Source: Escherichia coli
Lineage (GTDB): Bacteria > Pseudomonadota > Gammaproteobacteria > Enterobacterales > Enterobacteriaceae
DNA: 64,000 bases
Assembly: GCF_003334335.1 (NCBI RefSeq)
Contig: NZ_QOWQ01000001.1
Strand: one strand, 5' to 3'
Part shown: positions 26,004 to 49,353 of the stretch, piece after piece
How the letters are laid out: every line of letters starts with the position of its first letter
Numbering within the stretch: the stretch's first letter is position 1
The notes under the pieces: generated by a model
Seen by the model: only the letters and a program-made list of their open reading frames with translations
Told to the model about the DNA's origin: nothing
Database searches by the model: none
Made by a program: the position numbers and the translations under genes

Positions 26004-26080
<77 letters not shown>

Positions 26081-27474: not shown

Positions 27475-27571
27475 GCCGGATGCGGCGTGAACGCCTTATC
27501 CGGCCTACAAATCATGCAAATCCAAAATATTGCAGGAGTTATGTAGGCCTGATAAGCGTAGCGCATCAGGC
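27475..27571. repeat. BIME: two REP palindromic units in opposite orientation
   Basis: GCCGGATGCGGCGTGAACGCCTTATCCGGCCTAC at 27475..27508 and GTAGGCCTGATAAGCGTAGCGCATCAGGC at 27543..27571. Confidence 0.6.
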
Positions 27572-30130: not shown

Positions 30131-30321
30131 GGTACTCCTCGGCTTGATGCACCGATCGTGACGCAAAATTCACTTTGATACAAGGAGAGTGCTAACCATC
30201 AGAATTATCTGGATATCCTGGCGAAGCCGCGTAAGTAACATATGCTGAATAGTGTTAGGCGTTAATTTTAGCCTGTTAATCAATACTATTAAGATTTATT
30301 AATCGCTTTAAGGAGAAGATG

Positions 30322-30549
30322 ATGAAAAAGACTGCCGCAATTATTTCTGCCTGTATGCTGACTTTTGCCCTGAGCGCCTGTTCCGGTTCGAACTATGTGA
30401 TGCACACCAATGACGGACGTACCATCGTCTCTGACGGCAAACCACAGACTGATAACGATACCGGTATGATTTCGTATAAAGACGCTAATGGCAACAAACA
30501 GCAGATCAACCGTACTGACGTGAAAGAGATGGTCGAACTGGATCAGTAA
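30322..30549 (+). CDS. ygdI: Small lipoprotein YgdI (DUF903 family)
   Basis: 75-aa ORF (alternative ATG at 30319) with lipobox (LSAC); paralog of ygdR. Confidence 0.85.
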
Positions 30550-30565: not shown

Positions 30566-30771
30566 AAAAAAAAGCACCGCAATTAGGCGGTGCTACATTA
30601 ATCACTATGGACAGACAGGGTAAATGTACAGGAAGTGAAAAAAGGTAGCTTTGCTACCATGGTCTGAATCGCAGACCAATTGCAAACACAACAACACAAC
30701 ATCACAACCGTAAGCCAAAAGTTCACCAGAACACGCATTCCGATAAAACTTTTCGTTCCGGCTCAGGAAGT
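30566..30771 (-). ncRNA. gcvB: GcvB small regulatory RNA
   Basis: Reverse complement matches GcvB from ACTTCCTGAGCCGG through the GU-rich seed region to a GCGGTGC-U8 terminator; divergent from gcvA. Confidence 0.85.
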
Positions 30772-48942: not shown

Positions 48943-49310
48943 GTCGACAGGGAGTCAGACAACGAAGTGAACATCAGGATGATGACACTTCTGCAGGACA
49001 CACCAGGATGGTGTTTCAGGGAAAGGCTTCTGGATGAAGCGAAGAGGATGACGCAGGACGCGTTAAAGGACACCTCCAGGATGGAGAATGAGAACCGGTC
49101 AGGATGATTCGGTGGGTCAGGAAGGCCAGGGACACTTCAGGATGAAGTATCACATCGGGGTGGTGTGAGCAGGAAGCAATAGTTCAGGATGAACGATTGG
49201 CCGCAAGGCCAGAGGAAAAGTTGTCAAGGATGAGCAGGGAGCAACAAAAGTAGCTGGAATGCTGCGAAACGAACCGGGAGCGCTGTGAATACAGTGCTCC
49301 CTTTTTTTAT
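48943..49310 (+). ncRNA. csrB: CsrB regulatory RNA (CsrA-sequestering)
   Basis: About 368 nt starting GTCGACAGGGAGTCAGAC; at least 8 AGGATG hexamers plus further GGA motifs; ends in a GGGAGCGC...GCTCCC hairpin with T7 run. Confidence 0.85.
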
Positions 49311-49353
49311 TCCTGCTATCCTTCGCGGCAGTTTTTCTTATTGAGGTTGCTTT

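Follow-up and report, generated by a model that had tools for sequence, protein, structure and literature searches.

The YgdI/YgdR family of lipoproteins (NF033216, PF06004), also known as DUF903, is the closest described system for the two genes treated here. The family is of modest size: a two-sequence profile finds 264 clusters (50% identity) with E <= 1e-3, and single-domain lipoproteins of ~70-78 amino acids (aa) make up almost all of its full-length members. Seven distinct family chain sequences are present in eight entries of the PDB (2ra2, 5cai, 3bdu, 2jn0/3fif, 2rd1, 2rb6 and 2k57), two of which, 2jn0 and 3fif, represent Escherichia coli YgdR itself. All of these entries are titled 'putative/uncharacterized lipoprotein' or similar, and a literature search by PDB code found no paper describing the structures. 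The window analysed here, a 64-kb stretch of an E. coli K-12-like chromosome, carries both genes that gave the family its name: ygdI (30322..30549, plus strand), encoding a 75-aa precursor, and ygdR (2198..2416, minus strand), encoding a 72-aa precursor, stop codons included in the coordinates. YgdI and YgdR, thus, do not differ from the described family but are the family. No function is assigned to DUF903, YgdI or YgdR in the accessible literature, titles and abstracts included, in agreement with an initial annotation of the window, which had named none.

In their regulation and location the two proteins also resemble several other short outer-membrane lipoproteins of E. coli induced by RpoS or Rcs (OsmB, OsmE, Slp, YbaY, MliC and the like), which are listed beside ygdI and ygdR after Lol inhibition (PMC5105897). 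The likeness concerns regulation and location only; these proteins belong to unrelated folds and families. The explanation which we consider probable is that ygdI and ygdR are ancient paralogs, kept by differing stress control, and that each of them may provide a membrane-proximal binding module. Paralogy, family membership, fold, age, synteny and core status were computed in this work, regulation and location are taken from published papers, and the binding role and the division of labour are what we infer from these.

Paralogy, lipoprotein features and fold

Within the YgdI/YgdR (DUF903) family, the two proteins of the window are genuine paralogs. The precursors align in BLASTP with 43 identical residues out of 72 (60%), 75% positives and one gap (E 1e-31), and the blocks that had been noticed as shared (DGR-I, DGKP and QINR-DV) fall in invariant columns when the two are aligned. 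When the signal peptides are left out, 31 of 53 residues are identical between the mature parts, with a local score of 168 against 24.4 ± 5.0 in 5000 shuffles (shuffle maximum 55, z = 28.7). The initial annotation had named identity at chance level beyond the signal peptide as the outcome that would undo the pairing, and these values rule it out. Nothing but the short length of the proteins speaks for a similarity due to chance, or merely to a common signal peptide and lipobox, and this explanation can be dismissed in view of the score of the mature parts and of the fact that both proteins fit the same Pfam and NCBIfam models over their full length. In particular, residues 25-73 of YgdI (E 8.7e-24) and 23-71 of YgdR (E 2e-24) both match positions 1-49/49 of the Pfam DUF903 model (PF06004). 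The NCBIfam model NF033216, 'YgdI/YgdR family lipoprotein', is matched by both over profile positions 1-71/71, with 113.2 bits for YgdI and 105.9 bits for YgdR at a curated cutoff of 42 bits. The identification of the pair as DUF903 lipoprotein paralogs is, thus, upheld by the identity of the precursors and by the full-length family matches. The pairing is already known and belongs to standard annotation, the NCBI family being named after both genes. No third family copy was found in the window by tblastn.

Both proteins carry a signal peptide and a lipobox, as initially proposed. The signal peptide of YgdI is encoded at 30322..30381 (plus strand) and its lipobox is L-S-A-C (Cys codon 30379-30381) with Ser at +2, while the lipobox of YgdR is V-S-G-C, with Cys as residue 20, Ser at +2 and a mature part of 53 aa. 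Both lipoboxes, as read from the translations, fit the pattern [LVI][ASTVI][GAS]C, and all sequences of a 16-member alignment have the Cys. After lipidation, the mature protein consists of a single domain of 53-56 residues. Lipoproteins without Asp at position +2 are sorted to the outer membrane, and since both proteins have Ser at this position, their transfer to the outer membrane is predicted. The lipobox of YgdI has been given as LSAC21S in a study of E. coli O157:H7, where both YgdI and YgdR were present in membrane fractions and the membrane proteome (PMC3210124); this speaks against either gene being a frameshifted or silent copy. C-terminally tagged YgdI was recovered from the outer membrane and vesicles (PMC8284480), and YgdI appears in a published gene table as 'DUF903 family verified lipoprotein' (PMC8767339).

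YgdI and YgdR share the fold of the solved family members, a six-stranded Sm-like/SH3-like beta-barrel that is bent in the manner of Sm-like proteins. Only ~4 residues separate the barrel from the lipid anchor; therefore, its place must be directly at the outer membrane, on the periplasmic side. Structural alignments of YgdI and YgdR with Sm, LSm and Hfq proteins gave 6-19% identity, and the Pfam searches gave no LSM or Hfq family match with a limit as lenient as E <= 10. Unlike Sm, LSm and Hfq proteins, YgdI and YgdR have no N-terminal helix in the model, and they are exported and lipid-anchored, so that they have no contact with cytoplasmic RNA. The crystal entries of the family contain 2-8 chains. 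For YgdR, 3fif has eight chains and 2jn0 has a single chain; the latter is presumably a solution nuclear magnetic resonance structure, which would speak against a stable large ring. A calcium loop of the DxDxDG type was considered for the sequence 'TDNDTG' and rejected, as the spacing is wrong and position 47 is variable across the family.

Conservation and age of the two loci

The two open reading frames are intact and lie in unrelated surroundings on opposite strands, as had been described: csdA, gcvB and gcvA flank ygdI, while tas and ygdQ flank ygdR. The 1.2-kb piece around ygdI is 100% identical to strain MG1655, for which the RefSeq coding sequence has the same limits as the open reading frame given above; the ygdR frame is annotated as 'lipoprotein YgdR'. 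All complete E. coli genomes (5426/5426) contain the ygdI region, annotated as csdA, ygdI and gcvA, and 5425/5426 contain the ygdR region, annotated as ygdQ, ygdR and tas. Both genes, thus, are core genes of E. coli.

Two adjacent in-frame ATG codons are found at the start of ygdI (30319-30324) in K-12-like strains, where AAG became ATG. The frame read from the first of them extends over 30319..30549 and encodes 76 aa, while RefSeq and the initial annotation start the gene at the second (30322). Another E. coli strain and other genera carry AAG-ATG at this point; since AAG stands at 30319 in other genera, 30322 is the conserved start. The Shine-Dalgarno sequence AGGAG (30311-30315) is also better spaced for the second ATG.

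A scan of one genome per species with a two-sequence alignment as the query yielded at least 80 loci; the counts out of 80 refer to those listed. All of the listed loci contain YgdI orthologs (73-100% identity), and they span the Enterobacteriaceae, Erwiniaceae (Erwinia, Pantoea, Mixta), Yersiniaceae (Serratia, Yersinia) and Hafniaceae. The order csdA(-) ygdI(+) gcvB(-) gcvA(+) is kept in 80/80 of them, across these four families. Orthologs of ygdR were traced through cluster representatives, cluster names and the encoding contigs. Only one labelled ygdR locus has intact flanks, that of Musicola (Pectobacteriaceae); its order is exactly that of E. coli, mutH-TerC(ygdQ)-DUF903-tas, and its product is 60% identical to E. 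coli YgdR in the mature domain. The gene of the Rouxiella/Rahnella type (Yersiniaceae; 66% in the mature domain) follows mutH, and is itself followed by a gene of the major facilitator superfamily (MFS) and an aminotransferase fragment, with tas, lplT and aas located ~2.5 kb downstream. Sodalis has a ygdR-type ortholog with 69% identity in the mature domain, and a relative from Aeromonas, located near trmB-yggL, shows 55% identity to YgdR and 43% to YgdI.

Because the arrangements csdA-ygdI-gcvB-gcvA and mutH-ygdQ-ygdR-tas are kept across families, both gene addresses predate the radiation of the Enterobacterales, and the split between ygdI and ygdR is older than this order. An old duplication with retention of both copies had been suggested from the window alone; it is borne out by the fixed gene order around ygdI, by the place of the Musicola ygdR gene in mutH-ygdQ-ygdR-tas and by the Rouxiella-type gene next to mutH, to which tas-lplT-aas is close.

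The two proteins have changed at unequal rates. Between E. coli and Yersiniaceae, YgdI is ~80% identical and YgdR 66%, and YgdR diverges ~2x as fast as YgdI. In the Erwiniaceae, Yersiniaceae and Hafniaceae, YgdI is 73-84% identical to the E. coli protein, whereas the adjoining CsdA, a cysteine desulfurase, is 62-73% identical. This higher conservation of YgdI applies to loci L055-L085, among them L075, labelled Enterobacter cancerogenus, while two Klebsiella loci (L051 and L058), in which CsdA is 81-82% identical, were set aside. By this comparison of identities, YgdI appears to be under unusually tight constraint. The two proteins also differ at the C-terminus: YgdI has a conserved extension, whereas the '...QIIER' ending of YgdR is common to most distant family members.

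Relatives on plasmids

Members of the family are encoded in 381 plasmid records, as found by tblastn against PLSDB. One of them, designated here type b, is present in 280 records (249 at >= 90% identity); it resides for the most part on ColE1-like plasmids of 2.5 kb from Enterobacter, Klebsiella, Serratia, Salmonella and E. coli. The annotated genes of the 2.5-kb plasmid are rop, the DUF903 lipoprotein gene and a 63-aa open reading frame, with no others; in the 2495-bp plasmid NZ_CP035389.1 (L002), for example, the lipoprotein gene occupies 768-995. On 4.1-kb and larger MOBP plasmids, type b stands in tandem with another type, a, and the two are convergent with mbeD (25-507 in NZ_CP029125.1, L003, and 7239-7721 in L004). 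Both plasmid types are closer to YgdI than to YgdR (62 vs 44% and 58 vs 53% identity). Type a also occurs as a third chromosomal copy in Pseudocitrobacter vendiensis (L093, 6001-6234), between an MFS gene and kefF-kefC-folA. In E. coli, type b was found in only 6/5426 complete genomes, always on plasmids, so that the chromosomal pair is approximately the whole family in this species.

As the family is mobile, a duplication within the chromosome is not separable from an ancient acquisition. The word 'intrachromosomal', which the initial annotation had attached to the duplication, therefore does not hold as it was put: family members reside on hundreds of plasmids, a third chromosomal copy is present at other sites in some Enterobacteriaceae, and the alignment is too short to decide. 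It is possible, though on the whole doubtful, that one of the copies, and sooner ygdI than ygdR, derives from a mobile element with a diverged family member, and that it became fixed at its place between csdA and gcvB in the common ancestor of the Enterobacterales. The number of plasmid records, the wide distribution of a single type on 2.5-kb plasmids, the closer identity of the plasmid types to YgdI and the plasmid-like third copy at another chromosomal site in Pseudocitrobacter are all in line with such an event. In a neighbour-joining tree, moreover, a tight YgdI clade is placed beside the plasmid types, while YgdR-like sequences form a basal grade with the outgroups. However, the deep nodes of this tree, calculated from 56 columns, have bootstrap values <50%, and the grouping of YgdI with the plasmid types is only suggestive. 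Transfer from the chromosome to plasmids is equally possible. Besides, ygdI has a fixed site in all listed loci, so that any such event would have the age of the order itself, and no traces that could be examined, such as repeats or skewed composition, are left.

The plasmid relatives may also point to a role in protection of the cell. Since a plasmid with a lone recognisable cargo gene is spread across several genera and the tandem members lie in the exc1/exc2 slot of ColE1, DUF903 lipoproteins might represent a selectable outer-membrane trait, not passive stress proteins, that blocks the entry of mobilised plasmids, bacteriocins, phages or contact-delivered toxins, and ygdI and ygdR might do the same job under the control of RpoS and Rcs; we would give this proposal little weight. 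A related reading would make the whole family exclusion or protection lipoproteins acting against plasmids, colicins, phages and contact-delivered toxins, with the chromosomal pair as their domesticated, stress-induced form, which is equally improbable. The evidence in its favour is that a DUF903 lipoprotein gene is the sole recognisable accessory gene of the tiny ColE1-like plasmids, that the tandem pair of the 4.1-kb MOBP plasmids takes the place of exc1 and exc2, and that in a survey of Serratia the presence of DUF903 proteins correlates with that of the type VI secretion system (PMC12165300). The exc2-exc1 pair of ColE1 (3943-4880 in the plasmid compared, L005) is indeed similar in its slot and in its convergence with mbeD, and Exc2 is a lipoprotein as well.

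Nevertheless, no homology links the Exc proteins with DUF903. For Exc2, hhalign gave a probability of 32% over 28 columns, restricted to the signal peptide, and the translation of Exc1 has no signal peptide; moreover, this comparison concerns the plasmid relatives and not the genes of the window. The exclusion function of ColE1 was later assigned to mbeD and not to exc1/exc2, which counts against an exclusion role, and a position in the accessory slot of a plasmid is weak evidence in itself. Among the defence models of PADLOC-DB 2.0, 0 families were matched at E <= 1 by YgdI, YgdR or either plasmid type. In PHROGs, there were only weak matches, which start at the signal peptide (E 3e-5 to 0.008) and involve, with one exception, families of unknown function. 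Finally, core chromosomal genes at a fixed site are unlike defence islands.

Regulation, retention of the pair and the gcvB junction

According to published work, the two genes differ in their stress control. The ygdI gene is described as a 'lipoprotein induced by RpoS' and increases 25-53 fold on LolCDE inhibition, while ygdR increases 8-12 fold under the same treatment and is listed under 'Rcs induces', after cell-wall damage (PMC5105897). In the Salmonella proteome, YgdI depends on sigma-S (PMC5437024), and a Citrobacter strain mutated in cpxRA shows reduced ygdI (PMC6153362). Both genes were also modestly up with cathelicidin and after an acid shift in published data.

A promoter-like pair upstream of ygdI (30218..30246, plus strand) consists of CTGGCG (30218-30223), a 17-nt spacer and TATGCT (30241-30246). 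TATGCT is located 75-77 nt before the ygdI ATG in 51/80 listed Enterobacterales loci (75 nt in the window), with CTGGCR upstream, and in the Erwiniaceae the pair lies farther upstream. It was recognised by conservation only and is absent from the list of the consensus scan. An RpoS-like -10 element at 30281-30287 (CAATACT), the first guess for a ygdI promoter, was discarded as it is not conserved in other genera. A hairpin in the 5' untranslated region following the promoter-like pair is not claimed either, RNAalifold giving only 4 pairs, -1.98 kcal/mol and weak covariation. Upstream of ygdR, the sequence TAAGATTTTCCTG at ~2486-2498 resembles the RcsAB box, but differs in spacing and is not claimed as an Rcs box. 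After the ygdR stop, a terminator-like hairpin of 10 pairs followed by AGATTTTTCT (2169..2193, minus strand) was found by the consensus scan, as a pattern match only.

The mechanism which we consider probable may be summarised as follows. Each precursor of ~72-75 residues, with its Sec/lipoprotein signal, would be converted into a lipidated Cys carrying a small barrel at the periplasmic face of the outer membrane. YgdI and YgdR would supply the same kind of membrane-proximal binding module, for a putative envelope partner, under different conditions, and both copies may have been kept since different stress circuits switch them on, RpoS and Cpx in the case of ygdI and Rcs in the case of ygdR.

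Several observations weigh against this explanation. No binding partner, ligand or phenotype links either protein to a process, and deletion of ygdI caused no acid-resistance phenotype (PMC2676305). The invariant residues (K41, P42 and several Gly) are located in turns and may be structural, not a binding site. As to regulation, the TATGCT element of ygdI is not diagnostic of RpoS; the sequences upstream of ygdR in E. coli, Rouxiella and Musicola cannot be aligned with one another, and no Rcs box was confirmed there. In addition, both genes rise together under several stresses, so that the regulatory split is partial at best.

This last point would also fit a simpler possibility, namely that the paralogs are redundant, backing each other up in a single role with expression that overlaps, and are kept by selection for the dosage of an abundant little lipoprotein under stress, with no real division of labour. 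Their common increase after LolCDE inhibition, cathelicidin and acid shift, their occurrence in the same membrane proteome (PMC3210124) and the lack of an acid-resistance phenotype of the ygdI single deletion in one test (PMC2676305) are consistent with it. We nevertheless regard it as unlikely, as pure redundancy rarely lasts for the age of an order, and the unequal rates of change, together with the conserved C-terminal extension present in YgdI and not in YgdR, suggest that the two proteins are under different constraints. Retention of the ancient paralogs through differing stress control is what we consider most probable.

On the downstream side, ygdI is adjacent to the small RNA gene gcvB (30566..30771, minus strand; Rfam RF00022, 199 bits, E 1.1e-46, full length), which is a neighbour and not a member of the pair. 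The two genes are convergent and separated by 17 nt, counted from the stop codon of ygdI to the 3' terminus of gcvB, and gcvB stands beside ygdI in 80/80 listed loci. A G+C-rich hairpin, AGCACCGC-loop-GCGGTGCT (30573..30594), located between the convergent genes and found by the minus-strand terminator scan, is the terminator of gcvB. It is the only hairpin after ygdI. In most loci it begins 13-26 nt past the stop codon of ygdI, and in 79/80 of those listed it is located no more than 91 nt away, so that the tight convergent arrangement is kept there. The T-run of this hairpin is confined to the gcvB side, so that transcription of ygdI may continue into gcvB in antisense. Under trimethoprim and sulfamethoxazole, mutants with a transposon in ygdI had an advantage (PMC8767339), and this and other insertion phenotypes of ygdI may be neighbour effects on gcvB or gcvA. 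In practical terms, as the 3' end of gcvB lies directly beside ygdI, possible effects on gcvB and gcvA need to be considered before a phenotype is ascribed to an insertion or deletion in ygdI.

The Rfam scan of the window also identified CsrB RNA (48952-49311, plus strand, 380 bits), the small RNA ES036/CssrF (27508-27550, plus strand, 46.5 bits) and one tRNA (26007-26080, minus strand), all of which are unrelated to the pair.

As it stands, the pairing of ygdI and ygdR is ordinary and of low importance, several structures of the family being available. What the present analysis adds is that the pair predates the Enterobacterales with each copy at a fixed address, and that YgdI is more conserved than the enzyme encoded next door. 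The gap that these findings outline is the job of a conserved, stress-induced Sm-like barrel of ~55 residues at the inner face of the outer membrane. The occurrence of relatives as the sole cargo of widespread tiny plasmids implies a selectable phenotype for which one could screen, and the plasmid-borne relatives are the most direct experimental route to the function of DUF903.
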